46,033 nt of DNA, from NCBI GenBank assembly GCA_035650735.1, contig DASRGZ010000171.1, forward strand, positions 1-46,033, written 5' to 3'. Below the pieces are notes generated by a model, which saw nothing but the letters and a program-made list of their open reading frames with translations, had not been told where the DNA came from and searched no databases. The position numbers were made by a program, and so were the translations under genes. This stretch comes from Chthonomonadaceae bacterium. GTDB lineage: Bacteria; Armatimonadota; Chthonomonadetes; Chthonomonadales; Chthonomonadaceae. Numbering within the stretch: the first letter of the stretch is position 1; every line of letters starts with the position of its first letter. Of this stretch, positions 1,393 through 33,485 are shown piece by piece.

Positions 1393-1448
1393 GCTCTCCC
1401 GTATAACGCATATAAAGTATCAGGCTTACTCTCCACCTTCGGTTCCGC

Positions 1449-3029: not shown

Positions 3030-3033
3030 AGGG

Positions 3034-4617
3034 TTAGGTGGTGGGCAGCAATACCGTGTCGTGGCGCTCGCTTTCGACCGGCTCCGGGTAGTCCAGGGTG
3101 AAGTGGAGGCCCCGGCTCTCGTGGCGGTGCAGCGCACATCGGATGATGAGCAGGCCGACCTGGGCGATGTTACGCGCTTCCCAGGCTTCGACGGAGGTTC
3201 CCAGGGCGCCCTCCAGTTGACGGAGCGCCGAGCCGACCGTCTCCTGCGCACGCTGCAACTCTGCGGTCGTGCGCACGATGCCGACGTAGCGCTGCATCGT
3301 CTCCTGAACGGTGGTACGCAGGCGGCCTATCTCTTCTCTGTCGGGAGCGGGCGTCTCCGAAGGGAACGGTAGGGAGACCGCCCGGCCATCGGCAGGCAGC
3401 GCCGCGCTGGCGTGGGCGATGGTGTGCTTTGCCGCACGATAGCCGAAAACCAGCGCTTCCAGCAGCGAGTTGGAGGCAAGGCGGTTGGCGCCGTGGACGC
3501 CTGTACAGGCCACCTCCCCGGCAGCATAGAGGCGGGCGATGTTGGTCGCGCCGTCCAGGTCGGTCACGATGCCGCCGCACTGGTAGTGCTGGGCGGGCGT
3601 GACGGGAATGGGCTGGCGCGTGATGTCAATGCCCACGCTCAGGCAGCGCTCGTAGACGGTCGGGAAGTGGCTTTTGAGCAGTTCGGGGTCGAGATGAGTC
3701 ACGTCCAGATAGACGCAGGGCGCGTTGCGCCGCTTCATCTCGCTGACAATGGCGCGGGCCACGATGTCGCGCGGGGCCAGTTCCGCCAGCTTATGGTAGC
3801 GGGACATGAACGCCTCGCCGTCGGCGTGCCGCAGGATGCCGCCCTCGCCGCGCAGCGCCTCGGTGATCAGGAAGGCGCGGGCTTCCGGGTGATAGAGCGT
3901 GGTCGGATGGAACTGGATGAACTCCATGTTCGCCATCACCGCGCCCGCCCGCCAGGCCATCGCCACGCCGTCGCCGGTGGCGACCAGCGGGTTCGTCGTG
4001 TGCAGGTAGACGTGACCGCAGCCTCCCGTCGCCAGAAGCGTCGCCTTCGCATGAAACGTTATTTGCTCGTCGGTCTCGGCGTTGAGCGCGTAGGCGCCCG
4101 TGCAGGCCCGGCCCTGCGGCGTCTCTTGCAGGATTAGATCGGTAACGAAGAAATGCTCATAGACCCTGATCTCAGGGCGGGACTTGACCGCTTCCAGCAG
4201 CGTCCGCTCACACTCCCAGCCAGTATAATCGGCGGTATGGACGATGCGGTTGCGCGAATGGCCGCCCTCCCGTCCCAGCGCGAGCACGACCTTTCCCGTC
4301 TCGTCCACCTCCGTATTGAACTGCGCGCCGAGCCGTATCAGGTCGAGGATACGCTCCGGCCCCTCCCGCACCAGCACCTCGACGGCGTCCTCGTGGCACA
4401 GGCCCGCGCCCGCGACGAGCGTATCCTGCTTGTGCAGCTCAAAGGAGTCGTCTTCGGCCAGCGCGCCCGCGATGCCGCCCTGCGCCCAACTGCTGTTGGC
4501 GTCGGCGCGCGTCTTTTTCGTCAACAGCGCCACTGAGCCGTAGGGCGCGACGTTGAGGGCATAGGTCAGCCCGGCCAGGCCGCTGCCGATAACGAGGAAG
4601 TCCACCTCGACATTCAT
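3034..4617 (-). CDS. nadB: L-aspartate oxidase
   Basis: GSGLAG FAD motif, SSWAQGGIA, REGGHSRNRIVH, EFIQFHPT, LITEALRGEG, ELAPRDIVARAI, HYQCGG, GVHGANRLASNSLLE, ESRGLH. Confidence 0.96.
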   Translation of the reverse strand: MNVEVDFLVIGSGLAGLTYALNVAPYGSVALLTKKTRADANSSWAQGGIAGALAEDDSFELHKQDTLVAGAGLCHEDAVEVLVREGPERILDLIRLGAQFNTEVDETGKVVLALGREGGHSRNRIVHTADYTGWECERTLLEAVKSRPEIRVYEHFFVTDLILQETPQGRACTGAYALNAETDEQITFHAKATLLATGGCGHVYLHTTNPLVATGDGVAMAWRAGAVMANMEFIQFHPTTLYHPEARAFLITEALRGEGGILRHADGEAFMSRYHKLAELAPRDIVARAIVSEMKRRNAPCVYLDVTHLDPELLKSHFPTVYERCLSVGIDITRQPIPVTPAQHYQCGGIVTDLDGATNIARLYAAGEVACTGVHGANRLASNSLLEALVFGYRAAKHTIAHASAALPADGRAVSLPFPSETPAPDREEIGRLRTTVQETMQRYVGIVRTTAELQRAQETVGSALRQLEGALGTSVEAWEARNIAQVGLLIIRCALHRHESRGLHFTLDYPEPVESERHDTVLLPTT

Positions 4618-4627
4618 GCGTGACGAT

Positions 4628-5554
4628 CTATCCTTTCAACAAGGCTTCTCCGCCCATGCGGAGCAGGCGCGCGGCCAGTTCCGCGCCGATTTGCCCCGCC
4701 CTGGCGCGATGTCCCGTCGCCTCACTGCGCAGCACGCTCGAGCCGTCCGGGGCGGCGATCATGCCGCGGATAAGGACCGCGTTGCCCCGCACGGCAGCCA
4801 GCGCGCCCGCCGGAACGGAGCATCCGCCGTTGAGCGCCGCCAGAAACCCGCGCTCGGCGGCGACGGCGTCGGCGGTATCCGGGTCGTGCAGGGGCGCGAG
4901 CAATGCACGCGTTTTCGTATCGCCCTGGCGCGTCTCCAGCGCCAGCGCGCCCTGCCCCACCGCCGGCATGCAGAGGTTGGGGTCCAGCCGCTCGGAGATG
5001 CGCCCTTCCAGCCCCAGTCGGTTCAGCCCGGCGCAGGCCAGCATAATTGCATCGTACTCTCCCGCGTCCAGCTTGCGCAGGCGCGTATCCAGATTGCCCC
5101 GCAGCGTTACCAGCCGGAAATCCGGGCGGTGAGCGAGCAACTGGGCCTGCCGACGCAGGCTGCTCGTCCCAATGACGGCCTCCGGCGGCAGATCGACCAG
5201 CGTCTTTCCGCCGCGGGTCAGCAGGGCGTCGCGCGGGTCTTCGCGCGGAGGAACGCAGGCCAGTTCCAGGCCCTCCGGCAGTTCGCCGGGCATGTCCTTG
5301 AGGCTATGGACGCCCAGATCGATCTCGCCCGCCAGCAATGCCTGCTCGATCTCCGTGACGAACATGCCTTTGGCGCCGACCTGGGTGAACGGCACGTCGC
5401 GCCGCAGGTCGCCGGTCGTCTGGATGGTCACCAGGACCACCTCTAGCTCCGGGTGCGCCTCCCGCAGCCGCTCCACCACCTGTTCCGTCTGCGCGCGCGC
5501 CAATAGACTCCCGCGCGTCCCTACCCGCAATGGTTGTCGCCGTTCCCTGCTCAT
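4628..5554 (-). CDS. hemC: Hydroxymethylbilane synthase (porphobilinogen deaminase)
   Basis: GTRGSLLARAQ, KGMFVTEIE, VHSLKDMP, GTSSLRR, RGNLDTRL, PAVGQGAL, GGCSVP. AAGGAAGG RBS before ATG 5554. Confidence 0.96.
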   Translation of the reverse strand: MSRERRQPLRVGTRGSLLARAQTEQVVERLREAHPELEVVLVTIQTTGDLRRDVPFTQVGAKGMFVTEIEQALLAGEIDLGVHSLKDMPGELPEGLELACVPPREDPRDALLTRGGKTLVDLPPEAVIGTSSLRRQAQLLAHRPDFRLVTLRGNLDTRLRKLDAGEYDAIMLACAGLNRLGLEGRISERLDPNLCMPAVGQGALALETRQGDTKTRALLAPLHDPDTADAVAAERGFLAALNGGCSVPAGALAAVRGNAVLIRGMIAAPDGSSVLRSEATGHRARAGQIGAELAARLLRMGGEALLKG

Positions 5555-5660
5555 GCGATTTCCTTCCTTACTACGTTGAGTATACCTGAAATTGCCGTTC
5601 GGCCTTACCCCAACAGGACCGCGCAGTAGGGCCAATGCCTTTGAATTGATGCGACAATAG

Positions 5661-5888
5661 CCCTCACCCCCGGCCCCTACTGCAAGGGTCGGGCCTCAAC
5701 GGTTCGGCCCTCCGCCGACCTCCACCGATCAGGCCCTCGGCAGGCACCGGATCTTGCTGCATCGTCGGGCCTCAACTGTGCGGTTTCGGCGGAAACTCAC
5801 GAGGATAGGGCATACCGGATCTTGCTGCATCGTCGGGCCTCAACGGTTCGGCCCTCCGCCTTGCGATCCACGCTGCGGGAGAGGGGAG
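5661..5888. repeat. REP-like hairpin (CCCTCACCCCCGGCCCCT...GGGAGAGGGG) interrupted by an ACTGCAAGGG...CCTTGCGA unit carrying internal direct repeats
   Basis: Left end at 5679, right end at 5866. 29-bp direct repeat at 5688-5716 and 5832-5860; 31-bp direct repeat at 5746-5776 and 5814-5844. Confidence 0.75.
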
Positions 5889-5960
5889 AGGCGTTCTCAT
5901 GCGAGAGGGTGCGCCCCGCGCAGGGAGGACTGGTTAGAAAGCCTTCGCAAAAATAGGGGA

Positions 5961-5989
5961 TTGTCACGGAGGGGCGGATGGTTTATACT
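5961..5989 (+). promoter_or_regulatory. Sigma70-type promoter upstream of the small peptide gene
   Basis: TTGTCA-17 bp-TATACT. Confidence 0.65.
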
Positions 5990-6012
5990 TTGCGTGGGTA
6001 GAGGAGGGACAG

Positions 6013-6045
6013 AAAAAAGAGAGCGAGACTGCCATCTCGCTCTCT
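6013..6045 (-). terminator. Intrinsic terminator on the minus strand (candidate end of an antisense RNA)
   Basis: Minus strand reads AGAGAGCGAGA-TGGCAG-TCTCGCTCTCT followed by a T run. Confidence 0.55.
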
Positions 6046-6163
6046 CTGTCAACTTCTGCCTTGCACGGCAGGTCCTGGCGCGCCTGGCGTGTAGCCTAGC
6101 GGGGTCTGTGTTCTGAGCACAGACCCCGCCCTGCGCCAAAACTAAAGGAAGGAGGAAGCAGCT

Positions 6164-6268
6164 ATGGAGCTAGCATACCTGCTCCTCGGCATCGTGTTCT
6201 ACACGATGGGCATTGCCTACTACGCATATGCGTGGTATCGCATACTGCGCAAAGAGCGCAATATCTAG
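6164..6268 (+). CDS. 34-aa single-TM peptide, candidate type I toxin (MELAYLLLGIVFYTMGIAYYAYAWYRILRKERNI)
   Basis: Strong AAGGAAGGAGG RBS, hydrophobic helix with basic C-tail, downstream hairpin at 6286-6320. Below the ORF-track length cutoff. Confidence 0.7.
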   Translation: MELAYLLLGIVFYTMGIAYYAYAWYRILRKERNI

Positions 6269-6387
6269 GGGCTAAGGTCCCTGCCACAGCCTCGCCGGAA
6301 ATCTACTCCGGTAGGGCTGTCTTTCATTTAGCCCGTGCTTTGTTAGACGTGTAGTTTGCCCATCGGGTTTCTACACGACACATAGTT

Positions 6388-6416
6388 ATTTTAGCACTCC
6401 GCAACCATTTTGACAA
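6388..6416 (-). promoter_or_regulatory. Convergent sigma70-type promoter (candidate antisense RNA promoter)
   Basis: Minus strand TTGTCA-17 bp-TAAAAT with an extended -10 TG. No sizeable ORF downstream on that strand. Confidence 0.6.
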
Positions 6417-6542
6417 GAGCGAAGAACTCTATTTTCTCCGAATCTCTTCCGTTTTGGAAGTGGCGCCTCCAGCAAGTTCGCTGCCCTTTCATGACGGTGC
6501 CTTTCCCGCCCACGTAGGTGGGCGGCAGGCCGCAGGCCCCAC

Positions 6543-6565
6543 AGCGGCAGGGTTTAGCCTGCCGC
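6543..6565. repeat. REP-like hairpin family A (GCGGCAGGCTAAACCCTGCCGCT), reverse copy
   Basis: Same motif at 18647, 26211, 26338 and 45870. Confidence 0.85.
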
Positions 6566-6579
6566 AAACCAGAGCCGCC

Positions 6580-7716
6580 TTACCGCCGATGCTTGTCGGG
6601 AACGACAACCGTGAGCGTCAGGTCGGCGCGGTTGCGGCTGACGACCAGCAGCGGGTTATAGAGGTAGGGCTTCTTGAGGTCCCAGAGGCCCGCGCCTTCG
6701 ATGGCGCGCTCGGTATCCGGGCGGCGTCCGGGCGCGGTGCTCTGCGCGGCATAGGCTAGAATGCTGATGACCTGATCATCGCGCGGGAACCGCTTATCCA
6801 CCTCAAACTCGGCCTCGAAAAGTCCGTCGCCAATCGGCATGAGCTGCCAGGTCTGCCCGGTGCGATTGTTGCGGGCTACGACGACCACATAGACGGGCGG
6901 ATCGGGCGGCAGCGGAAACTTCGCCACGATGCGCACGCGCTGCCCCGGCTCCGCCAGGCTCGGCTCCAGCCGCGCTGCCGTGAAGCGCATATACCGGGCT
7001 TCGACCGCCGAAGGCTTCTCCGAGTCGACCGACGAGAGGCAGACGGGATCGAGCCAAGCCGCCAGCGTGCGCTGCTGCTTGCCGCCCGCTTTGAAGACCT
7101 CCTGCTGTACCCAGTAGACGCGGGCGACGCCGACCATATCATTGCTGCCGCGCGTCACCACCTTCATCAGCAGCGCGCCCGGCTGCTTGCGCTCCTCCTG
7201 CGGGGTCGGCTTTTTCTCGCGCGGCGACACCGCAAAGAGCAGTTGATCCGCCACGGCCCCGCCCGCCATGATCTCGCCTTTGGTCAGCGGGTCGGCAAAG
7301 TTGGATGCCTGGCTGGAAGTGATGGCGTGCACCCCGGCCCGCAGCGGGTTGGCGACGAAGCCTACCGCGCCGCCCACGAAGCGCGTAATGCCGCCGAAGA
7401 CCTCCGTGAAAAAGCCCTTCCCGCGCTTCTCCAGGTGGAGAACGCGCCTGGGCACAGCCAGCGCATAGTCGCCGTTCTTATCCGTGCGGGCGTAGTCCAC
7501 GACCTTGTTGGAGTCGTCATAGACGGCGACCAGCGCCCCCGCCAGCGGTCGGTTGTCCGCGCCGACGACGTGGCCCGTGACCCAGACCAGATCCTCAGCC
7601 CGCGCCGGCCCTTGCCCGCCGATAGCCAGCAACGCCAGCAGCAGCACCAGCGCCCATGTGCTGCCGGGCTTTAAGGTTGCTCTTCTGCTGGCTCTGTCCT
7701 CCCGTGCGCCAGACAT
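6580..7716 (-). CDS. Secreted protein with a carboxypeptidase-regulatory-like (Ig-fold) N-terminal domain
   Basis: Signal peptide (LVLLLALLAIGG..ARA), VTGHVVGADNRPLAGALVAVY...TDKNGDY. AAGGAG RBS before ATG 7716. Confidence 0.75.
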   Translation of the reverse strand: MSGAREDRASRRATLKPGSTWALVLLLALLAIGGQGPARAEDLVWVTGHVVGADNRPLAGALVAVYDDSNKVVDYARTDKNGDYALAVPRRVLHLEKRGKGFFTEVFGGITRFVGGAVGFVANPLRAGVHAITSSQASNFADPLTKGEIMAGGAVADQLLFAVSPREKKPTPQEERKQPGALLMKVVTRGSNDMVGVARVYWVQQEVFKAGGKQQRTLAAWLDPVCLSSVDSEKPSAVEARYMRFTAARLEPSLAEPGQRVRIVAKFPLPPDPPVYVVVVARNNRTGQTWQLMPIGDGLFEAEFEVDKRFPRDDQVISILAYAAQSTAPGRRPDTERAIEGAGLWDLKKPYLYNPLLVVSRNRADLTLTVVVPDKHRR

Positions 7717-7881
7717 CTCCTCTTCTCCTTTGACCGATGACTCTGTGCGCGCGCCGCCTCCGGGGATGCTGCCCGAAGGGTCAGGGAGTGTCGAACCCGT
7801 TGCAAGCAGGTTGGCGCCTTGACTACGTAGAACCGCACTTACCTGCAAGGTGCTTGCCACTCCCAGGGGCTACGCGCAAGT

Positions 7882-9186
7882 TTATTTCCAGGCCTCGCTA
7901 CTCTTGTCATCCAGCTTTTGCCGCAGGTTATCCATGCCCGCCACGCGCGTGATCTTATTGCTGGGCGAGATGATAAAGAAGGTGGGCGTCATGGAGGCGC
8001 CGCCGGCGGTGGCGGCCATGCGATCCTGGTTGACTCGCTGCATGTACTTGGGGTTCTGCATGTCAGCCTCCAGGCGCTTGACATCAATGCCGGCAACCGA
8101 GGCTCCCTTGAGGAACTCCTTCGGCGAGAAATCTGGCATTTCCGTCTGCGTCTGGTGATCATAGATATAGTCGTGCATCTGCCAGAACTTGCCCTGCCCC
8201 TCCGCCGCTTCGGCGGCTACCGCCAACTGCGTCGAATACTCATGCATGGGCAGCGGCAGGTTGCGGAAGGCCAGCCGGACCTTGCCTTTGTACATGGAAA
8301 GGAAGTCGTCTATATGGTCGTGGACGTTCTTGCAGCTCGGGCACTGGTAGTCGGCGAACTCGACGACCAGGATGGGAGACTTGGGGTCGCCCCGGAGATG
8401 CATGCCCGCCGGCGCGATCAGCTCGCGCAGCGTCGTCGGCATACGCACGGCGCCTTCCCGCATGTTCTTCTGGACTTTACCCCATTGATCGGCGATCTGC
8501 GGCATGGCCATGAAGGCAAACAGGATAGCGATGAAGGCGCAGACGCCGGCCAGCATCTTTTGCTCTCCGGTCAGTTGGCGGCCATCCAGCCAGTAGTCCC
8601 GGGAGGCCAGCAGAAAGATCAGCGTGATAAGGATCGCAGAAGAGAAGCAGTAGGGACAGAAGCTAAAGAGAACGAAGAAGGCCACATATTGCAGCCACCA
8701 GGAGATCGCCACGCCTGCCAGCGACAGCCACCAGATCGCGCCATCCAGCCGGTTCAGGGCGGCGCGCTCGGCAAGCGGCTCTCCCACCTTTCCGTCGGTT
8801 CCCCGCATGGTCGAATCGGAGCGGCCCGGCGTGGGGGGCAATTCCGCCTCCGCGTCGGCGGCAGCCGGGGCTTCCGGGGCGATCCCGGCTGTGGCGTAGG
8901 CGGCAGCACGGGCGGCTTCGGCCTCCCGCAGCGCCTGCAGCCGGTTGCGGCGGACCAGACAGAGCGCGACCAGCGCCAGGTACATCAGCAATCCGAACGT
9001 CGCCGTCGGGATCGGCCCGATATGGCCGTAGGTGCTTCCGAGGGCGCCCTTACATCCCCCGCCCACGGCGCCGCAGGGCAGGCTAAAATCGGGGCGGAAG
9101 TGCTCGTAGGTTAACAGAGAGGCCACGATGACGCCGGCGCCCGCCAATCCTAGCGTCACGTAATTGGAAAGAGATCGAGTATTCAT
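7882..9186 (-). CDS. VKOR-family membrane oxidoreductase fused to a DsbA-like thioredoxin domain
   Basis: VKOR loop cysteines (PCGAVGGGC..S.Y) and CPYC; C-terminal VEFADYQCPSC, FRNLPLPMH, GKFWQMHD and TPTFF. Confidence 0.9.
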   Translation of the reverse strand: MNTRSLSNYVTLGLAGAGVIVASLLTYEHFRPDFSLPCGAVGGGCKGALGSTYGHIGPIPTATFGLLMYLALVALCLVRRNRLQALREAEAARAAAYATAGIAPEAPAAADAEAELPPTPGRSDSTMRGTDGKVGEPLAERAALNRLDGAIWWLSLAGVAISWWLQYVAFFVLFSFCPYCFSSAILITLIFLLASRDYWLDGRQLTGEQKMLAGVCAFIAILFAFMAMPQIADQWGKVQKNMREGAVRMPTTLRELIAPAGMHLRGDPKSPILVVEFADYQCPSCKNVHDHIDDFLSMYKGKVRLAFRNLPLPMHEYSTQLAVAAEAAEGQGKFWQMHDYIYDHQTQTEMPDFSPKEFLKGASVAGIDVKRLEADMQNPKYMQRVNQDRMAATAGGASMTPTFFIISPSNKITRVAGMDNLRQKLDDKSSEAWK

Positions 9187-9375
9187 GGTGGTATTATACA
9201 GTAACCTGCCTCAAACCGCAACAGGGCCTGGCCGCGCGGCCAGGCAGGAGGCGGAGAAACGGCGCGGGCGGACCGCTTGCGGCCATCGCTCGCACCCTCC
9301 AGAGCAACAAGGAAGAGAAATACGCGGAAATCCACGGGAGGAAAAGCGCGGCGAACAACATTTCGGAACATATCG

Positions 9376-9403
9376 GGGGCATGGGCTAGCTAGCCCATGC
9401 CCC
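9376..9403. repeat. Perfect 28-bp palindrome
   Basis: GGGGCATGGGCTAG|CTAGCCCATGCCCC, just downstream of the peroxiredoxin stop. Confidence 0.85.
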
Positions 9404-9432
9404 GGCAACAGGCGCGCTAGAGCGCGGCAGAG

Positions 9433-10092
9433 CTAGAGCGATTTCTTGGCGAAGTACCAGTCCTTGGCTTCTACCCCCGGCTCATGCATCCGCTTGTCGG
9501 CGCCTTCGGTAGTCTTGGGCGCCGGAACGATGACCGGCTCGCCCGGCTTCCAGTTGACCGGGGTCGAGACGGCGCTCTGATCGGTGGTCTGGAGCGCCTT
9601 GACCAGCCGCAGGATCTCGTCCACGTTGCGCCCGTTGGTCAGCGGGTAGTAGATCATGGCGCGCACGATGCCCTTATCGTCAATGATAAAGACGCAGCGC
9701 ACGGTGGCGGTGCTGCTGGCGCCGGGATGGATCATCCCATAGAGTTGGGCCACTTTCGTATCGAGGTCGGCGATCATCGGGTAGGGGATCTTGACCCCGA
9801 AGTTCTCCTCCATGTTGCGAACCCAGGCGATATGCGAGTAGACGCTGTCTATGCTCAGGCCGACTAGCTGGGCGTTGAGCGCCTGGAATTCGTCGTTGCG
9901 CCGGGCAAACTCGACGAGCTCGGTGGTGCAGACGGGGGTGAAGTCGGCGGGATGGGAGAAGAGCACGACCCATTTCCCGCGCAGGCTAGATAGGGTGAGC
10001 GTTCCCTGAGTGGTCTCGGCGGTGAAATCCGGGGCCGGTTCGTTCAGGCGCGGCAGGGAGCGCGGCGCGGCCTGGACAGTCTCGTCCGACAT
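9433..10092 (-). CDS. Peroxiredoxin (1-Cys/Prx6 type)
   Basis: LFSHPADFTPVCTTE, YYPLTNGRNVDEILR, TPVNWKPG. Confidence 0.95.
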   Translation of the reverse strand: MSDETVQAAPRSLPRLNEPAPDFTAETTQGTLTLSSLRGKWVVLFSHPADFTPVCTTELVEFARRNDEFQALNAQLVGLSIDSVYSHIAWVRNMEENFGVKIPYPMIADLDTKVAQLYGMIHPGASSTATVRCVFIIDDKGIVRAMIYYPLTNGRNVDEILRLVKALQTTDQSAVSTPVNWKPGEPVIVPAPKTTEGADKRMHEPGVEAKDWYFAKKSL

Positions 10093-10276
10093 GGCAATCT
10101 CTCCTTTTCTACTTTCAGATCGTATCTTCAGCCGACCAGGGCAGGTCCGCCTGCAGACGTGCCCTCGCCGGGGACACGCCGTCCCCGATGGCAGGGCCGG
10201 CGGTCTTGGCGAAGCGCACCTTGCGTGCTGGCAGGGCGGTTACTGGCCGCACAAATGGCGACTATCCTGACGGAAT

Positions 10277-10306
10277 AGTATAGAGTAAACCAATCCAGTT
10301 TGTCAA
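10277..10306 (-). promoter_or_regulatory. Sigma70-type promoter of the peroxiredoxin, with a ~180-nt leader
   Basis: Minus strand TTGACA-18 bp-TATACT. Confidence 0.6.
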
Positions 10307-10487
10307 GCAGCGCTATGCCCAGATCGGCCTCCCTGAAACAGTGGTTTGAGATTGCGTTATTGAGCCTCGGAAGGCAGCCATGCTTTCTTACCCTACCGGG
10401 GCGCGGCGAACGCTTCTGGCAGGTTGGGCTGCCGGCAAGGAGAAACGCCGGCCTGCGCCCTGTATACCTTTCGCCTCGAAGGTGGTC

Positions 10488-11474
10488 CTACTGCGCCGAG
10501 ACGCTCGCGCTTGCCGTCCGGCCCGCCTGGATCGCGTGCATCAGGGTCGCGGCAGCCGCGCGGTTGGGATAGCCCGTGTCCTGGGCCAGGTTGCCCAGGA
10601 GCTGGAGCGTTTTCAAGTAATCCCTGCGGATCATGGCCGGGCTGACAAAATGGCCCAGCGATATCAGCGAGCGCGGCTCGTGGGCGAGGGCGTTGACGAC
10701 CTCGCGTGGATGGGCCAGCAGCAGAGTCGTCTGCGCTTCGGCGGAGGCTTCGCCCAGTCCGCCGATGCCGCGCATGGCCAATATGTACTTTAGTACGTTG
10801 GTATCCCCGTTATGCTCATAAAGCCGCAGAAACAGATTCGGCGCGGCTAGTGCCTCAAAGAGCGAGTCGCCCGCCTTCTTCTGCAGCGCCGCCCAGCGGC
10901 GTGTGGCGGCAGTGGGGCGGGGAGCAAGCAGCGCGATCTCTTCGACATAGGGCCGGAGCAGCGCGCGCAGGTTGACTCCGTAATCCAGGTTGAAGTAGGC
11001 CAGGGTAAAGTTAATCGCGACGTTCTGCCAGGTCGCCGGGTTGGAGTAGGTCTGGCGCAGGCGCAGCAGCCGAAGCTTCAGATCGTCAGGAGACACGGCT
11101 GCCAGGTCGGCATCCGAGATGGGATCGTCCATATTGACGCCCATCGTCTGGTAGATGTCGCCATAGCTGCAGGCGCGGGAAAAGGCCAGCAGGCGCTTGA
11201 GCACCTCCCGGTCGCCGATGCCCTCTAGAGTCGCGCAGGGCGCAGACGGCATCCCGGATTCGGCCTGCTTTGTCTGCTGGGCCGGATTCTTTGCCGGAGC
11301 CGAAGCGGTAGGATGCGCCTTGGGGCTGGCTGCCTCTTTGTTGCTCTGGGATTGCGCATGGGCAGGCGCCGTCGCCGTGGGAGCGACGACCATACCGACG
11401 GCGAGGGTCAGGGTGCAGGCGGACAGGGTGACGAGCGAGAGTCGATGCGGGCGTGGGGTTGCAGGATGTTTCAT
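10488..11474 (-). CDS. Hypothetical secreted helical protein
   Basis: Long ORF with signal peptide (LSLVTLSACTLTLAVGMVV...AHA). No family recognised. Confidence 0.7.
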   Translation of the reverse strand: MKHPATPRPHRLSLVTLSACTLTLAVGMVVAPTATAPAHAQSQSNKEAASPKAHPTASAPAKNPAQQTKQAESGMPSAPCATLEGIGDREVLKRLLAFSRACSYGDIYQTMGVNMDDPISDADLAAVSPDDLKLRLLRLRQTYSNPATWQNVAINFTLAYFNLDYGVNLRALLRPYVEEIALLAPRPTAATRRWAALQKKAGDSLFEALAAPNLFLRLYEHNGDTNVLKYILAMRGIGGLGEASAEAQTTLLLAHPREVVNALAHEPRSLISLGHFVSPAMIRRDYLKTLQLLGNLAQDTGYPNRAAAATLMHAIQAGRTASASVSAQ

Positions 11475-11737
11475 ACGGAATCGTTCCTTTAAGTCTTCCT
11501 TTACGTGTGACAAAAGGTGAGATGGGAAAGGGCACTGCGCCGAGAGCCGTCAAGAGTCGGGGCGATGCAAAGCTTTGCGTCAGGACAGAGAGCCGGGCTG
11601 GTCCCTGTCTCTTAACTATTACAGCCGCTAGCGGGCTATGTGACAGTGACATTTGCTATTTTACCCGGCAATTCCTCTTTTTGGTAGCCCTCCACAGGGC
11701 CATTCTGTTTTCTTTTTGGCCCCCACCCCCTGTTCCC

Positions 11738-11868
11738 ACTGCCAGGGCCGGGGCTGCAACGGACTGCAAGGGTCGGCCCTGCCATGGTTCGGGCTACTGC
11801 TAGGGTCGGCAAGGTTACGGCCCTTGCCTCCGCCTTGCGATACCTTGCGACAGCCCTCCGCCTTGCGA
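11738..11868 (+). mobile_element. Three nested ~45-bp ACTGCnAGGG...CCTTGCGA units inside a REP-like hairpin
   Basis: Left ends at 11738, 11763 and 11796; right ends at 11840, 11850 and 11868. Un-nested lengths are 45, 43 and 43 bp. Confidence 0.75.
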
Positions 11869-12019
11869 CCCCTAGCTTTAGGAGAGGGGGAACCGAGAAG
11901 CTTTGACTCTCCCCTTCCCTGTTCTTGGGGGAGGGGTTTGCTCAGAGGGGTAGATAAGTTCGCCCGGTCTATCTCGACGACGGGCTAAAGCCCTTCGCTT
12001 TGTGGCGTTCCGCCCAGTG

Positions 12020-12064
12020 ACTGCTAGGGTCGGAACTGCGCACGCTCGTTCCTCCGCCTAGCGA
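12020..12064 (+). mobile_element. Single 45-bp unit ACTGCTAGGG...CCTAGCGA
   Basis: Outer stem GCTAGG/CCTAGC, inner stem GGAAC/GTTCC. Confidence 0.75.
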
Positions 12065-12245
12065 CGCCCTTGCGGACACGTACCGCCTGAGAGCCTGGTA
12101 CGTCTCCCCGTAGGGGCAGACTGGGCCGTAGGCCACACAGCGAGGGAATGGATTCCCTTGTGGCAGAGGCACCGAACGGGCATACCTGCCCCTCTGAGGG
12201 AGGGGGTTGGAGGTGGGGGCCAGAGTGGATTTCGCCCAACGCTGC

Positions 12246-14711
12246 TTAGGCGCTATCGCCGGGCAGCAGCGCAAGGTTGAGCACCTCGTCCATGTGCGCC
12301 ACATGCCGGAAGCACATCTCCTCCCGCACGTTCTCCGGCAGCTCTTCCAGGTCTTTCTCGTTCTCCTTGGGCAGCAGGACGGTGCGGATACCGGCCCGGT
12401 GCGCCGCCAGCGCTTTCTCCTTGACGCCGCCAACCGGCAGCACGCGCCCGCGCAGCGTGATCTCGCCGGTCATCGCCACATCTTTGCGGACGGGGCGGCG
12501 CGTCAATGCCGAGGCGATGGCGGTGGCGATGGTGATGCCGGCGGAGGGGCCGTCTTTGGGCACGCCGCCCGCCGGGACGTGGACATGGACATCCAGCTTA
12601 CGATAGAAATCCTCGTCCACGCCCAGCGCTGCCGCCCGGGAGCGCACGAACGAGAACGCCGTCTGCGCCGACTCCTTCATCACGTCGCCTAGCTGGCCGG
12701 TCAACTGTACGCGCCCTTCGTGGCCCTTGAGCAGGCTCACCTCAATGGTCACGATGTCGCCGCCAAACTCGGTATAGACCAGCCCGGTCGCCGCCGCGAC
12801 CTCGTCCTTCTCCTCCATCACGCCGTAGTGATAGCGGCGCTGGCCCAGATATTCCTTTAAATCCGGGGCATCTATGGTCACGTGGCCCACCTGGCCGCCC
12901 GCCACCTGCCGCGCCACCTTGCGGCACAGCGTCGCTATCTCGCGCTCCAGGTTGCGAACTCCCGCCTCGCGCGTATATTCCCGAATCAGCTGGCGCAGCG
13001 CCGCTTCGGTGAGGGTCAGGTGCTCGGCGGTAAGGCCGTGATCTTTGCGCTGCTTGGGCACCAGGAAGCGGGTGGCAATGGCTAGCTTCTCCTCCTCCGT
13101 ATAGCCCGAGAACGCGATGACCTCCATGCGGTCCTTGAGGGCGGCGGGGATGGGATCGAGGAGGTTGGCGGTCATCACAAACATCACGTCCGAGAGGTCG
13201 AAGGGCACCTCCAGGTAGTGGTCGCTAAACTCGTGGTTCTGCTCCGGGTCGAGCGCTTCCAGCAGGGCGCTGGAGGGGTCGCCCCGAAAGTCCATGCCGA
13301 GCTTATCAATCTCGTCGAGCATGAAGACCGGGTTGCGGACGCCCGTCTGCTTGATTCCCTGGATGATCCGGCCCGGCAGCGCGCCGATATAGGTGCGGCG
13401 GTGGCCGCGTATCTCGGCCTCGTCGCGCACGCCGCCCAGCGACACGCGAATGAACTTGCGCCCCAGGGCGCGGGCAATGCTCTTGCCCAACGAGGTCTTG
13501 CCGACTCCGGGCGGGCCGACAAAGCAGAGAATGGGGCCGCGCGTCGTGCCGGTCAGCTTGCGCACGGCCAGGAATTCGACGATGCGCTCCTTGACCTTTT
13601 CCAGCCCGTAATGGTCTTCCTCCAGGACGTGCGCCGCCTCTTCCACATCAATGTTGTCCGGCGTGATCTTGTTCCAGGGCAGCGCCACCAGCCAGTCCAG
13701 GTAGGTGCGGATGACCACGCCCTCCGGCGCGGCAAACGGCATCTTCTCCAGGCGGTCTACTTCCCGGTTGGCCCGCTCCACCGCCGCCTCGGGCATGCCG
13801 GCAGCGGCGATCTTGGCGCGGTACTCCTCCAGTTCGCCGCCGCGCTCGTCGCGCTCACCGAGCTCCTGCTGGATGGCCCGCATCTGTTCGCGCAGGATGA
13901 ACTCGCGCTGGGTCTCGCCCATCTCCTTCTCAACGCGGGTGCGGATATGCTTCTGAATTTCGAGTATCTCCGCTTCCTTCTTGAGAACCAGGGAGAGCTT
14001 GTTCAGCCGCTCCTTGACATCCAGCGTTTCTAGGATCTCCTGTTGCTGATCGACGCGCATCTGGCGCAGATAGGGCGTGATGACATCGGCCAGCCGGCCC
14101 GGCTCGTCCGTGTTGACGACATTGATCAGTGCTTCCGGCTGGATGTTCTTGCCGATGCTGACCACGTGCTCGAACTGAGCCACGACGTTGCGCATCAGCG
14201 CCTCGGTGGGCAGGTCTTTGGACTCGTCGGTGGGCAGCGGCTCGACCTGGACGCGATAGAACGGCTCGGCTTGCAGATACTTGGTGATGCGGCAGCGCTC
14301 CAGTCCCTCGAACATCACGCGCACGGTGCCGTCGGGCACGCGCAGTATCTGCATGATCTCGGCGACAATGCCGATGGAGTAGATGTCTTCCGGGTCGGGG
14401 TCTTCGGCCTGCAAGTTCCGCTGCGCGACAATGAAGATGCGGCGGTGCCCGGCGGCGGCCTCTTCCAGGGCGCGCACCGACTTTTCCCGTCCGACAAGCA
14501 GCGGGAAAATCATATGGGGAAAATAGACCTGATCGCGTATGGGCAATAGCGGCAGCGCCAGCGGGAATGCCGGGGTAGCGGGCTCGATCTCCGCCCCGGA
14601 TGGCGCCAGCGCTCTGGCATTTCGGGAGGACGCCGTTCCCGGGGTGGGCGCGGACGTCTGCAGGGTCTGCTCTGCCTTGCCGGCAGGGCCGCTCTGTTTT
14701 TTGCGGGGCAT
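12246..14711 (-). CDS. lon: ATP-dependent Lon protease
   Basis: LON N domain ([10 protein letters not shown]), [34 protein letters not shown] catalytic Ser, GGVKEK. Confidence 0.98.
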
Positions 14712-14806
14712 GGTTAAGCTCTCCCCTCCTGTCTGGTTTGCCTGGCAAATTTCGCGAAAGCAGGGCCGAATTCCTTTTCAAGAGCCTTAAAGACAGATCC
14801 TTCAGC

Positions 14807-14905
14807 CGGGCCATGAATGAACCGTCTGCGTGGCCTACGGCCAAGCGACTGCAAGGGACGCCGCTCAACGGCTCGCGGCTCGGCCTTGCGACTAGCGGAC
14901 GCACC
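14807..14905 (+). mobile_element. Dispersed host repeat (GGGCCATGAATGA..CCGTCTG..GGCCTACGGCCAAGCG / ACT.GCGGACG) carrying a 44-bp unit at 14848-14891
   Basis: Homologous copies at 35466-35637 and 43034-43109. Confidence 0.75.
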
Positions 14906-15138
14906 GTTTCGGAAGGGTCTTCCCGTTCTACAAAGATATCCACCTGCCGATAGGCCCGTTTTCCCGTCCGAAGGACGGTTGGCGGCGTAGCCGTCCCCCA
15001 GACGGGTATTTCAATGCCCGGCTGGGTGGCCTGCAACAACTGGCATGGTTTATGCAAGCCTGCATTATTACAGGTAACCAGGCTCTATCTGTGTATCCCT
15101 GCATGCAGTCAACCGAGCTTACGAAAGGAGACCCATCC

Positions 15139-16050
15139 ATGCGTAGCAAGTCCTTACTCACAGTGATTTGCTCTGTCATGCTCGGCAGCCTCGTGCTAGG
15201 ACCGACCCATGCACAGCAGATCTTCAGCGGCGTCGGCGCGGGCGCAGCCACAGCCTTTCAGGACATGAAAAACGCTATCGGCGGCGTCAATAACGGTGGC
15301 GGAGGCGGGCCGCAGGTTGGCGGCTTCCGCACCATTGACTGGGACGCCGTCAAGCTCGACGGCACCGATTTTGGCGGCAACACCACCGTCATTGACCTCA
15401 ACCATACCATCGGCATCCCTACCAACCGATTCCAGGCGCGCGGCCTCGTCTTCGCGGAGGAATACTCCGTCAGCGGCGACCAGTTCGCCACCGTCAACCC
15501 GGACACGGCGACAAATTTTAACTTCTTCAGTCCCAGCAACACCTTCGTTATGTTCGATGCCTCCAGCGATAAGTTCGATGACCGCTTCATCGATCAGCAC
15601 TTTACCTTCGCGGGCACGCCCAACCAGGCCGGCACGCGCGGCTTCGGCGCGATCTTTAACGATGTAGAGCGGGCCGGTTCCAGCAGCATCGAGTATTTCG
15701 GCCACGACGCCAACGGCAACTTGGTCAGCCTGGGCAAATTCGATGTGCCGGTTGGAGCCAGCGGAGAGTCGGAGTTCCTGGGCGTGCTGTTCGCTCAGCC
15801 TATCGTCACGGATGTCACCCTGACCGTTGGCGACAAAACGCTGTTTAATTTCGACGGCGCCACCTTCCACTCGTTTGGCCCAGAAGATCCAGCGGGTGGC
15901 ACTGACCTCGTGATCACGGATGACTTCCTCTTTGCGGAGGCGACCACGTTCGTCACCGTTGTGCCGGAGCCTTCGGCAGCGGCAGTGCTGGCCTGCGGGG
16001 TTCTGCTGCTAACGGCGCAGCGGGTTCGCCGCCACCGGCGACGCCGCTAA
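15139..16050 (+). CDS. PEP-CTERM sorting-domain surface protein
   Basis: AAAGGAG RBS, signal peptide ending THA, C-terminal VPEPS + TM helix + Arg cluster. Confidence 0.92.
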   Translation: MRSKSLLTVICSVMLGSLVLGPTHAQQIFSGVGAGAATAFQDMKNAIGGVNNGGGGGPQVGGFRTIDWDAVKLDGTDFGGNTTVIDLNHTIGIPTNRFQARGLVFAEEYSVSGDQFATVNPDTATNFNFFSPSNTFVMFDASSDKFDDRFIDQHFTFAGTPNQAGTRGFGAIFNDVERAGSSSIEYFGHDANGNLVSLGKFDVPVGASGESEFLGVLFAQPIVTDVTLTVGDKTLFNFDGATFHSFGPEDPAGGTDLVITDDFLFAEATTFVTVVPEPSAAAVLACGVLLLTAQRVRRHRRRR

Positions 16051-16082
16051 CCATTCGTCTCGCAAGAGATAGAGCTGCCCTG

Positions 16083-16114
16083 TAGGCACCGTCCTGAATT
16101 CAGGACGGTGCCTA
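16083..16114. repeat. Perfect 32-bp palindrome with GTAG at the left end (REP-like)
   Basis: TAGGCACCGTCCTGAA|TTCAGGACGGTGCCTA, with a second hairpin at about 16123-16155. Confidence 0.85.
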
Positions 16115-16548
16115 GCGAAAAAATGGCCCGGCGTTCTGCTGACAGCGCCGGGCCAAGAACCAACAGAAGAGACAGAACAGATTGCAAATCAAACACCACT
16201 GATGTTATGCCCGTTTTGAGGCTCACCCTGATTCATCACAAATGCCAGTTCTTTAGTAGACATTTTCCCCTGCTGCCGGTCTTTGGGCAAAATTCCTGGT
16301 ATCCGTGCTCGTTTTGGGCCTAACTCCCGCCCCACAGACCTCATCCTCGCACTTGTGCTATCCGCTTCCGCCTCCCTCCGATGGAACGACAGAAACGACT
16401 CCGGTAGGTAGTCCTTTCGGCCCTGTGCTCTCTCCTGCGGTTGCGGCGTGCTATTGCCTGCGTCCGCGACAGGAAGACCGAAACGGACTGTCTGGAGCCC
16501 AATCTGTAGATTACCGTTTTCTGTTGCGACCCTACGGAGGAGCCCGAA

Positions 16549-18042
16549 TTGGCTTTGCAATTCAATACCAATCTGGACGCCCTCACGGCGACCTTCAACC
16601 TGCTCAAAGTTTCGTCCGCCATCAGCACATCCATCCAGCGGCTCAGCTCCGGCCTGCGCATCAACAGCGCCGCCGACGACCCGGCCGGGCTCGTTATCGC
16701 CAACAGCCTTCAGGCGCAGGTAGATGGCCTCAACCAGGCCCTAGAAAATAACCAGGATAGCATCAACCTGGTGAAGACGGCTTCGAGCGGAATGGATGAG
16801 ATCAACTCTCTGCTCGATACTATCCGGCAGAAGGCGCTGGATGCCGCCAACACGGGAGCGACCGATCCCACCGCTGCCCAGGCAGACCAGACGGCCATCC
16901 AATCGGCCATCCAGTCCATCAATAACATCGCCTCCAGCACCCAATACGGCTCCAAGAAGCTGCTGGATGGCTCTGCGGGCGTCACCGCCGCCGTCACCAA
17001 CAGCACTCTGATCGGCGGCATTAACTTCGGCGGCACCTATGGCGGCGGCGTGACGCAGGCCGGCAACGTGACCATCACCGTCAACAACGCCGCCACCCGC
17101 GCCCAGGTCAGCGGCGGCACGGCGGCCACCTATGCCAGCGTCAACGCCTCCATTTCGACGGTGAACGGCACGACGACTGGCACCGGAGGCACGGTGGTCA
17201 TCAACGGCCAGACCGTCACCGTTAGCGGCACGGATACCGTCCAGACCCTCATTGACAAAATCAATGCGCTGACCGGCACGACCGGCGTCGCGGCCAACTT
17301 TGTGTCGGCCAACGGCTCCGGCAGCATCACCCTGACCAACCAGAACTATGGGGCCAATTTCAAAATCACCGAGTCGGAAACGGCGGCGTTGATCGCCGGC
17401 ACGGCCGGCACGACGGTGGCCGGGCTGAACGCGACGGTGACGGTGCAGGCCTCTACGCTGGTAGGCGGCAACGTGACGACGGTGGTGGCGACCTTTACCG
17501 GCGGGCGCTATGCCTCCGATTCTGGGTTGCGCGTTACCGATACCAACGGCAATTCCATCCTGTTGACGGAAGCGGGCAACAACACCAGCACCTCCAGCAA
17601 AGCAGTGGGCGCGGTGACCGCCAACTCATTGCAGTTCCAGATCGGCGGCGGCGTGGGCCAGACGGCCAACATCGCGCTCAACAGCGTCTTTGCCTCGAAC
17701 CTGGGCACCACCTCCGTGCCCGGCCAGACGCTCGCCACCATTGATGTCACGACCACGACCGGCGCCAACAACGCCCTGCAGATCGTCGGCGAGGCCCAGA
17801 ATCAGATCAACCAGTACCAAGCGCAATTGGGCGGATTCCAGGACAACGTACTCCAGGCCACCAACGACTATCTCAACAATAGCGTGCTGAACCTGACCGC
17901 CTCCATCACTAATATCACCGGGGCCAACATCGCTCAGGAGGTCATGAACCTGACCACCAACCAGTTGATCCAGCAAGCAGGCGCCTCGGCGCTGGCTACA
18001 GCCGAGAACCTGCCCGCCATCTATCTCAAGCTCCTCTCCTAA
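16549..18042 (+). CDS. Flagellin (orphan, divergent C-terminus)
   Basis: FNTN, RLSSGLRINSAADDPAGL, QFQIG. TTG start after GGAGGAG; Thr/Gly-rich variable region. Confidence 0.93.
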   Translation: MALQFNTNLDALTATFNLLKVSSAISTSIQRLSSGLRINSAADDPAGLVIANSLQAQVDGLNQALENNQDSINLVKTASSGMDEINSLLDTIRQKALDAANTGATDPTAAQADQTAIQSAIQSINNIASSTQYGSKKLLDGSAGVTAAVTNSTLIGGINFGGTYGGGVTQAGNVTITVNNAATRAQVSGGTAATYASVNASISTVNGTTTGTGGTVVINGQTVTVSGTDTVQTLIDKINALTGTTGVAANFVSANGSGSITLTNQNYGANFKITESETAALIAGTAGTTVAGLNATVTVQASTLVGGNVTTVVATFTGGRYASDSGLRVTDTNGNSILLTEAGNNTSTSSKAVGAVTANSLQFQIGGGVGQTANIALNSVFASNLGTTSVPGQTLATIDVTTTTGANNALQIVGEAQNQINQYQAQLGGFQDNVLQATNDYLNNSVLNLTASITNITGANIAQEVMNLTTNQLIQQAGASALATAENLPAIYLKLLS

Positions 18043-18083
18043 AGGCCGTTGCGAGGCGGCTTGCCTGCCCGCTAGTCCGTTGG

Positions 18084-18614
18084 CTATAGCCCGGCTGCCG
18101 CCAGCAGCCGGGCGATGATCTCAGCCCAGCGTTCCGGGTGCGACTCATGGCGGTGCTCCGGGACGAAGCCCAGGTTCTGATAGGTCTTGATGGCCGCCAG
18201 GCGGTGATCATCCGTTTCCAGCACGGCATCCTTGCAGCCGCGCCGGACGAACTCGTGGAGTACGGCCAGCGTGACGGCATAGCCGAGGCGCTGCCCGCGA
18301 TGGTCCGGGTCTGCGGCGACCCAATGCACGTAGCCGGAACCGGGGTACTGATCCGGCAAAAGCCGCGCCGAGGCGGTGGCGACAGGTATGCCCTGATAAT
18401 CAATCACGAACGTCTTGACGACGTCGGGCGCATTTATCAGGGCCTGACGCACTTTTTCCGGCGTCCACTGCGGGTCCTCAAAGGCTTTGCGCATCAGCGC
18501 GGCCAGCCCCTCCAGGTCGCCTGGCTGATATTCGCGCAGCGTGTAGCCGGGCGGCAAGGGAGGTATAGGAGGCAGGTCGTCCAGGTTGGGACGGCGCATC
18601 AACAGTTGGTGCAT
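18084..18614 (-). CDS. GNAT acetyltransferase
   Basis: VHWVAADPDHRGQRLG motif A; AIKTYQNLGF. Confidence 0.9.
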   Translation of the reverse strand: MHQLLMRRPNLDDLPPIPPLPPGYTLREYQPGDLEGLAALMRKAFEDPQWTPEKVRQALINAPDVVKTFVIDYQGIPVATASARLLPDQYPGSGYVHWVAADPDHRGQRLGYAVTLAVLHEFVRRGCKDAVLETDDHRLAAIKTYQNLGFVPEHRHESHPERWAEIIARLLAAAGL

Positions 18615-18646
18615 GGTGTTTCCTCACAGCTATAAGCAGCTTTAAC

Positions 18647-18830
18647 GCGGCAGGCTAAACCCTGCCGCTGTGGGGCCTACGGCCCAGGCGCCCGGCCCTA
18701 AAGGACCGGGCTGCGGACGGCAGCCCCATAAATGGGGCTGCCAGAGGTCGGTCAGTCCTCTTCAAGGGCTACCAGAAAGGAGAGCCCCCTTCAGGGGGCT
18801 TGCCGTCCGCAGCCCACCCCTTCAGGGGTG
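18647..18830. repeat. Cluster of REP-like hairpins
   Basis: Family A copy at 18647-18669; inverted repeat GGGCTGCGGACGGCA at 18708-18722 and 18801-18815; AGCCCC..GGGGCT hairpins. Confidence 0.8.
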
Positions 18831-18873
18831 ACTGCCAGCAATTACCGTAGACACTCTAAGAGAGCGGGAGAAC

Positions 18874-20046
18874 TCATCCGGATTTCTCCTCTCTGGCGAA
18901 GCGGCGTTCCCAACCCTCCGCGAACAGGTTAAAAAAGGTGGTCTGGAACGGATGCTGGCCGATGACCTCTCGATTGAGTTGAACGCCTAGCCCCGGCCTT
19001 GAATCCAGGGCGGCGCGGGGAATCTCGCTCTCTATTACGTTGGGATGGCCGGGAACGGCTTCCTTGACGTGGGGCGGCATGAAATCGTCGAAGACCTCCT
19101 GCACCAGCAGATTCGGACAGGTCAGGGCAAAGTGCGCTGAGGCCGCCGTACAAACCGGTCCCTGTGAGTTGTGCGGCGCAACCATAATGCTGTAGGCGTC
19201 CGCCCAGGCGCAGAGCTTGCGCATCTCGGTCAGCCCGCCGACGTAAAGGACATCCGGCTGGAGAATATCCACGCAGCGGCTCTCGATGACCTGCCGGAAG
19301 CCGTAGCGCGTGCAGAAGTGCTCGCCGCCCGCAATCGGCACGTCAACCTTGTCCTTGACCTCACGCCAGGCCAGCGGGTCGTCCCAGGGGCAGGGCTCCT
19401 CAAACCAGCCGATTCGGTAAGGCTCGAGCGCGCGGCAGAGATCGATGGCCTGGCGCGGCGCAAACCGTCCGTGGCCCTCGATATAGATCTCGAAGTCGTC
19501 GCCGACCGCCGCGCGTAGGGCCTTCACAATGGCGACCGAAAGCGCAAACTCCTGCCGCGACAGCGTGTAGGAGCCGCCGCCGAACGGGTCAATCTTGGCG
19601 GCACGGTAGCCCCTGGCCTGGACGTCCTGCGCCCGCGCCGCGATCTTTTCCGGGTCGCGCCCGACCGTGTACCAGCCGTTGGCGTAGCAGGGCACCGCCT
19701 CGCGGTAGGCGCCGCCGAGCAGCTTATAGACCGGCACGCCCAGCGCCTGTCCCATGAGATCGTGGCAGGCGATGTCAATGGCGGAAAGCCCAGCACAGGC
19801 GATCATGCCGCCCCGGATGAAGTCGCCGCGATAGAGGCGATTCCAGAGGGCTTCGATATCGAAGGGATCGCTGCCGACGACGTGCCGGGCGGCGATCCCC
19901 TCCAGATAGGCCAGGACGGCCTCCGTGCGGTTGGCAAGCGTGGCCTCGCCGTGCCCGACCAGCCCCGCGTCGGTGTGCAGCGCAACGAAGATCAGGTTGC
20001 GCCAGCCGTCGTGCATCACATAGGTCTTGAGCTCGGTGATTTGCAT
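18874..20046 (-). CDS. Mandelate racemase/enolase superfamily acid-sugar dehydratase (galactonate dehydratase-like)
   Basis: SAIDIACHDLMGQALGVPVYKLLGG, YANGW, KIDPFG, WFEEP, GEH, LQPD, APHN. Confidence 0.9.
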   Translation of the reverse strand: MQITELKTYVMHDGWRNLIFVALHTDAGLVGHGEATLANRTEAVLAYLEGIAARHVVGSDPFDIEALWNRLYRGDFIRGGMIACAGLSAIDIACHDLMGQALGVPVYKLLGGAYREAVPCYANGWYTVGRDPEKIAARAQDVQARGYRAAKIDPFGGGSYTLSRQEFALSVAIVKALRAAVGDDFEIYIEGHGRFAPRQAIDLCRALEPYRIGWFEEPCPWDDPLAWREVKDKVDVPIAGGEHFCTRYGFRQVIESRCVDILQPDVLYVGGLTEMRKLCAWADAYSIMVAPHNSQGPVCTAASAHFALTCPNLLVQEVFDDFMPPHVKEAVPGHPNVIESEIPRAALDSRPGLGVQLNREVIGQHPFQTTFFNLFAEGWERRFAREEKSG

Positions 20047-33413: not shown

Positions 33414-33485
33414 AACGCCTGCCCGGCAACTTATTCACTGACAGGACGAACCAGACCCTATGAGAGTTCCGGCGAATAATTTCCC

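Follow-up and report, generated by a model that had tools for sequence, protein, structure and literature searches.

A self-nesting hairpin unit of 44-45 nucleotides, very probably a mobile micro-element, in the REP-like repeats of a Chthonomonadaceae genome

The Chthonomonadaceae genome analysed here (G000; 6.52 Mb in 224 contigs, 63% GC) carries a family of gene-less hairpin units, 44-45 nt long, which are hosted by other hairpin repeats and by their own copies, up to four deep. The unit takes the place of target bases without duplicating them, its inner stem is structurally constrained, and it is very probably a mobile micro-element. An earlier note on the window, the 46,033-nucleotide stretch of DNA from which the analysis set out, had proposed an ultra-short non-autonomous mobile element; the absence of genes, the duplication-free insertion into hairpins and into itself and the constrained stem all speak for that proposal, while mobility itself is deduced from paralogues only.

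Results

The unit is laid out as a left end ACTGCnAGGG, a 3/4-nt internal loop, an inner stem of 5-7 bp, a loop of 7-11 nt and a right end CCTnGCGA. The window holds 12 left ends where chance predicts 0.43, and no more than three turn up in any of 100 shuffles; all 12 are on the + strand and at the positions given in the earlier note. Its other primary observations also held when the sequences were re-read, namely the 44-45-nt length of intact units, the identity of their inner stems and the particular copies in which the outer n/n pair is matched or mismatched. All seven sites are intergenic in a codon-model gene set. A covariance model trained on 100 distinct units finds six intact units in the window (11796-11840, 12020-12064, 14848-14891, 35557-35600, 43051-43095 and 45938-45982, all +) together with the split unit 5679/5824, and Rfam returns no match at gathering score in the window and none at E<=1 in four loci.

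Among the stacks of the window only that at 11738 is a clean triple nest. Its innermost member is an intact 45-nt unit of the GGCAAGG/CCTTGCC subtype (11796-11840, +) with a 2-nt tail, TA, at 11841-11842. The middle unit (11763-11852, +; left part 11763-11795, right end 11843-11850, tail CA 11851-11852) is broken at the bulge 3' of its inner stem. The outer unit (11738-11868, +), with 11738-11762 as its left part and 11853-11868 as its right, is broken within the loop, where CAACGG precedes the break. The whole nest splits the 5' arm of a host REP-like palindrome comprising a C-rich tail and a stem (11720-11889, +). As had been claimed, the nest is clean, with a net loss of 2 nt and no duplication, and it peels to three 45-nt units once each unit with its 2-nt tail is swapped for 4 nt; the reported loss of about 2 nt is better put as the in-register replacement of a 4-nt window.

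The remaining sites show a variety of hosts. An intact 45-nt GGAAC/GTTCC unit (12020-12064, +) lies in a second host family (about 11991-12079), with the CG after the unit retained, and an intact 44-nt GCCGC/GCGGC unit (14848-14891, +) lies in the host GGCCAAGCG|TCCT, which is the REP family on the flanks of the Y1 gene at locus L006. The intact 45-nt GGCGC/GCGCC unit at 43051-43095 (+) is likewise in a GGCCAAGCG host. At 35507-35622 (+) the three reported left ends (35507, 35528, 35557) are present, but only two right ends accompany them, making this a hybrid stack around one intact 44-nt unit (35557-35600) rather than a clean nest; its host family is identical to that at 14848. The unit at 5679-5866 (+) does lie inside a host REP (5661-5886), but what splits it is not another unit. 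Two foreign, spacer-like inserts are stacked there, one of 47 nt at 5717-5763 and one of 37 nt at 5777-5813, and a duplication of 29-31 nt accompanies each. Both left ends described at the composite stack 45913-46033 (+) are there, in an outer left part (45913-45937) and a unit (45938-45982), and the site additionally has a captured foreign 35-nt piece (45985-46019) followed by a duplicated unit segment, cut off by the contig end.

The genome-wide pattern search suggested in the earlier note confirmed the family. G000 has 844 exact left ends (399 on +, 445 on -) and 468 sites, at which one, two, three or four left ends are stacked in 252, 142, 64 and 10 cases, respectively. Matches running from left to right end are 44-45 nt long in 344 of 363 instances, and a slight relaxation of the right end yields 393 intact units, 200 of them distinct, with none in a reversed-genome control; 36 lone left ends viewed by eye are truncated, hybrid or chance matches. 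Thirty of the 468 sites fall inside crude ORF calls. Nineteen of these were inspected: one is a chance motif in a gene and 18 are repeat clusters, most of them at over-extended ORF ends and at least one resembling a true in-frame insertion. On contig C56 (about 60500-60850) a REP cluster with nested units stands, apparently in frame, in the middle of an ORF that by eye resembles an oxidoreductase gene (59709-61653, -), to which it adds roughly 90 residues.

That all copies are on the + strand is true within the window but not beyond it, as 221 sites of the genome are on + and 247 on -. Neighbouring sites more than 1 kb apart share a strand in 127 cases and differ in 121 (p=0.75). Strand is random among the 468 sites, and the all-plus pattern of the window is therefore chance. 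As to the strand bias relative to replichores that had been raised for testing, orientation is divided 187:182 with respect to contig GC-skew sign, a weak proxy in an assembly of 224 contigs. Nor is unit strand related to majority gene direction at the 468 sites, and between co-directional genes there is no sense bias (122:128); a 154:25 sense excess within 150 nt of stop codons was set aside, since it was measured from the left end and is so biased. Close pairs do face each other (35 '+-', one '-+', 12 on the same strand), as do those of the host repeats. The window also contains dnaA and recF (33891-37788), with no match to a DnaA-box pattern and a cumulative GC-skew minimum near 22 kb.

The proposed covariation of the inner stem was tested in the covariance-model alignment. 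The stem is 95.8% paired, with two-sided changes in four of five pairs; covariation is 0.354 against 0.080 in 500 shuffles, all of which it exceeded, slid controls reach at most 0.081, and stem pairing in 99 distinct non-A 45-mers is 0.91 against 0.71 when permuted (maximum 0.76), figures that are not probabilities as the copies are related. New inner-stem sequences in other organisms still pair. Units reach 48 nt in the relative G001. Two extra loop pairs alternate G-C/G-U and C-G/U-G, read on the top strand. The outer stem is nearly invariant, partly since the search pattern fixes it, and says little on structure. At its variable n/n pair, 47% of units have matching bases where chance would give 28%; given the mismatches in about half of the copies, the outer stem may be read as sequence.

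Seven host patterns were tested, and all have both empty and filled copies (for example 150/65, 50/44, 93/35 and 84/10, for patterns that may overlap). Orientation inside hosts is fixed, with a split of 181:6 among units that sit in the loops of other units and of 104:1 within a single host, and each of six subtypes occurs in several hosts, with preferences. The left flanks of insertions (CCCC, AYGG, GGCC, CTCG, AGCG, GCTG) reveal no fixed target tetranucleotide.

Other features of the repeat landscape were seen alongside the unit. Two smaller modules of 14 nt, one with 44 copies and the other with 25, occupy mainly the loop of the CCCT...GGGAAGG host repeat and are further micro-insertions with variable left bases; an ACT...YA end rule common to the unit and to 14-17-nt loop modules was rejected, as the left bases of the modules vary. 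G000 also avoids many 6-bp palindromes (CGATCG at 0.09, CTCGAG at 0.10 and GTCGAC at 0.14 of expectation), which suggests past restriction pressure.

The junctions follow a rule, L-n1n2n3n4-R -> L-unit-m3m4-R, in which two bases are lost and the next two are kept or rewritten. It was obtained by peeling, whereby each unit and the next 2 nt are swapped for a placeholder and the procedure is repeated level by level. A 4-nt placeholder restores 138, 33 and 2 outer units at levels 2-4 (173 in total), whereas placeholders of 0, 1, 2, 6 or 7 nt restore at most two; the partial recovery with 3 and 5 nt arises because unit length was allowed to be 44 or 45. Among 581 peeled units 222 have an empty paralogue seen at least twice, with exactly 4 nt between the flanks in 194, and in an independent junction test (379 units with 9-nt flanks) 176 of 186 fit the 4-nt window; neither test shows a target duplication at the unit junctions. 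In 36 of 39 flank classes both n1 and n2 are pyrimidines. An n3n4 of CG is followed by a CA tail in 87 of 88 cases and by TA in one, CT is retained in 34 of 38, CC gives TC in 31, CC in 19 and TA in one, GG is retained (two cases) and TG gives CA in nine, TA in four and TG in two, counts which do not represent independent events and in which the 'empty' allele is the commonest paralogue, not a proven precursor. The CA tail occurs too in the relative G010, at L184 of G001 and at the metagenome locus L043, and CG after the unit is retained at three G000 sites and at L163, L174, L182 and L229 in G001. Genome-wide depletion of CGACG, considered as the cause of the change from CG to CA, was not seen (ratio 0.88). 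Tails are nearly fixed per host class, and no excision footprint was seen in G000.

Nests are also copied as such. The composite seen at 45913-46033, whose duplicated unit segments enclose a single captured piece of 35 foreign nucleotides, is present in 15 copies in at least four host flanks. Nests have therefore been copied between loci after forming, either because the outer unit moved and took its cargo along or because one copy converted another. Frequent recombination among copies is indicated by hybrid stacks and by halves that have reassorted.

G000 further contains 115 isolated scars, each a near-unique insert of 30-45 nt between two copies of a 26-40-nt stretch whose length peaks at 30-31 and 36-38; two are in the window (33486-33581 and 5746-5844), and genome-wide 85 of the 115 lie outside ORFs. 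Their sizes match the 30-nt repeat and 34-38-nt spacers of an array beside cas1 on contig C93, and they are likely to be natural off-target spacer integrations. No enrichment of scars at units was found, with 5 of 115 touching unit clusters under a strict mask that misses some seen cases. In the Cas1 of G000 (C93:8250-9428; L018, L019) about 60 acidic, low-complexity residues are inserted in frame at position 129 of the Pfam model.

Only a small number of related genomes carry the family. The covariance model finds the unit in 4 of 42 genomes of the bacterial family, with about 400 intact units in G000 against ten in G001 and seven in G010, a burst in G000 only, and a single copy in G019. This last copy, on an rpoB contig end (L001/L213, G019:C128), is 100% identical to a G000 composite and lies at a locus that G000 does not have; the contig bearing it is probably mis-binned. 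A pattern search of 400 genomes of the phylum, a sample without G001, G010 and G019, gave no credible copy, a match in G090 being rejected as at control level. In 185,579 genomes a variant pattern with an AAAYGATT loop matched at eight places, all in one Chthonomonadaceae MAG record, which places the family in that lineage. Viral contigs gave no matches with two patterns and plasmids none. Three metagenome contigs unlike G000 carry unit variants, one of them nested (L043, with different stems), and the units of G001, of G010 and of these three unrelated contigs are in different host hairpins. A divergent unit is also carried at L189 (G000:C191, about 1079-1450), where, after a 149-bp CTAG-flanked repeat with about 35 genome copies, comes a segment present once in the genome and terminated by a right end of IS605-like type. 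L189 was rejected as the source locus of the unit, being single-copy and without an Rfam match; it reads as one more insertion.

Soil and mine metagenome runs contain a strain near-identical to G000, with 124 of 130 metagenome loci matching it at 99.9-100%; the best-matching run may be the source sample itself, and no RNA dataset appears among the runs listed. The empty orthologous sites that the earlier note had hoped for in close relatives were not seen: eight such runs, over window positions 1-20000 and 30000-46033, and other assemblies are near-identical to G000, with almost no differences in the runs and with contigs that break at units, and G001 and G010 align to G000 in genes and repeats only, their intergenic DNA not being alignable. 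The case for mobility accordingly rests on empty paralogous host repeats.

HUH/Y1 transposases had been put forward as candidate drivers. G000 has three Y1 matches, two of which score as IS200/IS605 TnpA, below the RAYT cut-off; these two genes are flanked by REP families that host the unit, and one host family is the REP flanking Y1 genes in G000, G001 and G010. The assembly contains no intact Y1 gene: that at L006 has DHVP where all five homologues compared have DHVH, that at L007 is split over two frames, and the match on C52 holds a stop. Likewise no TnpA or RAYT gene flanked by unit ends, as had been envisaged, was found, with no units in 16 TnpA or cas1 loci and a distance of 6-25 kb between the Y1 genes of G000 and the closest left end. 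Y1 genes are present in 32 of 42 genomes of the family, and close L006 homologues in 25, against four with the unit; they are too common to explain its narrow range. Two IS605/TnpB remnants in G000 have, by eye, ends that differ from those of the unit.

Profiles for other enzymes gave nine tyrosine-recombinase and four serine-recombinase matches in G000, no match to IS110 (PF02371) in this incomplete assembly, none to reverse transcriptase (RVT_1) in an assembly lacking repeats, and no stand-alone DUF559 or GIY-YIG gene, matches being restricted to 1561-aa and 618-aa frames. Just four small genes are bracketed by left ends; judged by eye, three of them encode metabolic enzymes and one a membrane protein. 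The assembly has no contig below 2.4 kb and many contigs end in repeats, and a multi-copy enzyme gene may thus be missing from it.

Discussion

We tentatively favour a reading in which the unit is a non-autonomous element pasted as folded single-stranded DNA in trans, most likely by a REP-associated IS200-type Y1 HUH transposase, and consider the chance that this is how it moves to be short of even; that the enzyme is a Y1 HUH at all is a possibility we would grade similarly. The enzyme would bind the inner hairpin and both fixed ends, and would open the target within a hairpin arm or beside one, usually where two pyrimidines adjoin, with two target bases lost. The 2-nt CA tail of the donor would then lie in register over n3n4, where it could overwrite (CG to CA) or be trimmed off, leaving CT, CC, GG or TG retained, and recombination or conversion between copies, with the spread of host repeats, would multiply whole nests. 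This fits because the hairpin covaries, the ends and orientation are fixed, there is no duplication and the hosts are REPs. PMC8266576 describes TnpA-REP as acting on single-stranded hairpins, which it cleaves at C|T or C|A; the left end of the unit contains C|T, and C|A is frequent at its right end. Against it, the lost or rewritten bases and the free target sequence are unexplained, and four host patterns showed none of the precursors (L-ACA-R) that plain cutting and joining at C|T or C|A would require. Base loss and rewriting are not known outcomes of HUH enzymes. The damaged Y1 genes, the 16 TnpA or cas1 loci devoid of units and the lack of a fixed target tetranucleotide also count against the driver that the earlier note had suggested.

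A rival, somewhat unlikely in our estimation, is templated break repair, in which a nuclease would nick or cut hairpin repeats, about 2 nt would be trimmed from the ends, and a single-stranded copy of the unit would serve as the template for a patch. The outcome would be in-register flank replacement, with the left always AC and the right often CA, without a dedicated transposase. It accords with a constant net gain, irrespective of whether the unit is followed by two target-like bases or by CA, with the absence of an excision footprint, and with the reassortment of left and right halves evident in outer n/n mismatches and in hybrid stacks such as 35507-35622. Yet orientation is fixed although no flank homology would guide the patch, and G000 has no stand-alone DUF559 or GIY-YIG gene. 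An unlikely further reading is that an undescribed chemistry replaces the 4-base window in register, the unit belonging to a cross-phylum class of 18-48-nt REP-hairpin parasites that depend on an enzyme family to which no role in mobility has so far been ascribed. If so, the enzyme would be a minimal, structure-guided, duplication-free inserter, with cargo possible inside a 45-base frame.

The near-fixation of tails per host class, the recurrence of identical composites, the damage to the Y1 genes and the lack of presence/absence polymorphism in eight runs are all compatible with a history of few founders, in which a dozen or so old insertions have been multiplied by host-REP spread and gene conversion and the unit is no longer self-mobile. 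We think this decidedly unlikely, since independent insertions are still needed at many points in G000, with further ones in G001, G010 and the metagenome contigs, and about 400 intact units in G000 stand against ten and seven in the two relatives. An RNA intermediate, whereby the unit would be transcribed, fold and be copied into nicked hairpins by a reverse transcriptase, is improbable: the wobble alternation of the two extra loop pairs on the top strand is what it would lead one to expect, but G-T wobbles form in single-stranded DNA too, there is no sense bias between co-directional genes, and the assembly, lacking repeats, has no RVT_1 match.

G000, the only genome with a burst of the unit, has cas1 and 115 repeat-spacer-repeat scars outside the array, and one could imagine a half-site reaction in which a promiscuous Cas1-Cas2 links one strand of the target to the folded unit at its 3' end, repair completing the insertion. 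This is highly improbable, as the scars have 26-40-nt duplications and the unit none, the five scars that touch unit clusters under the strict mask are near the number predicted from the intergenic share, and the target points of the unit are fixed. Assembly artefact or tandem slippage is scarcely credible: 39 of 448 contig ends lie at the left-end motif, but a locus of another assembly, which may share the source sample, is 100% identical across 10296-13564 (L098), inner and outer units differ in sequence, and another organism has a nest with different stems (L043).

Whichever route is taken, how REP-sized repeats spread is a long-standing question, and REP dissemination is called poorly understood in PMC8266576. 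In this family the ends are exact, the target points are known, a single genome provides both empty and filled paralogues, the junction rule is unusual, and the nesting order of units dates insertion events. With the ends, target points and junction rule so defined, a short synthetic substrate could test candidate enzymes directly. The weight of the finding is limited by movement deduced from paralogues only and by an uncultured host.

A close parallel is the SDR of Nostoc, reportedly described by Elhai et al. in 2008 as elements of 21-27 nt that nest in their own copies, keep their structure by compensatory changes, vary in presence and absence between close strains and are moved by an enzyme said to be unknown. 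On this description both are very short, gene-less, precisely inserted modules found in other repeats and in their own copies, and both would retain structure by compensatory change. They differ in that the unit is 44-48 nt against a reported 21-27 nt, no cyanobacterial copy of it was seen, and its targets are REP-like hairpins and itself. PMC4390886 has SDR5 inserting at an exact point of HIP1, and PMC3116915 mentions the SDR of Nostoc.

REPs and REPINs with TnpA-REP (RAYT) resemble the unit in being intergenic, high-copy hairpins with close pairs that face each other (PMC8266576, PMC3116915, PMC6006769 and PMC3733652), REPs inserted in other palindromes are described in PMC3733652, and one host of the unit is itself the REP of a Y1 gene. 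The unit differs by having no GTAG tag at the hairpin foot, by never being found beside a Y1 gene, and by a two-tier stem with fixed ends, self-nesting and replacement of target bases. In a check for a CGTC tag, GACG overlaps the foot of the inner stem only in subtypes with A at position 11, most copies having GGTC. Classical MITEs, given in PMC3733652 as 70-300 bp with 15-30-bp terminal inverted repeats and a target duplication, are likewise non-coding, multi-copy and intergenic, but the unit is shorter and has neither such inverted repeats nor the duplication. IS110/IS1111 derivatives would share a 2-nt core at both junctions; the junction dinucleotides of the unit differ, and the incomplete assembly has no PF02371 match.

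Non-autonomous IS200/IS605 derivatives (PATEs) lack a target duplication and have hairpin-defined ends and a fixed orientation, all of which they share with the unit. Unlike them, the unit has no fixed target tetra- or pentanucleotide, shows a net loss of 2 nt (194/222), has one hairpin for both ends, and does not have its ends in common with an autonomous element, judging by eye from the two IS605 remnants. On the weak proxy of contig GC-skew sign its orientation is evenly divided (187:182). IS200/IS605 cleavage is guide-based according to PMC8266576. Rfam offers no curated model that the unit matches, in the window or in four loci, and the unit does not qualify as a GTAG REP, an IS200/IS605 derivative, a MITE or an IS110 derivative. 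The literature searched, which left out most subscription papers, yielded no published description of the family. By analogy the unit may work like the SDR of Nostoc and like REPs inserted in palindromes, and its kind is known from these two.
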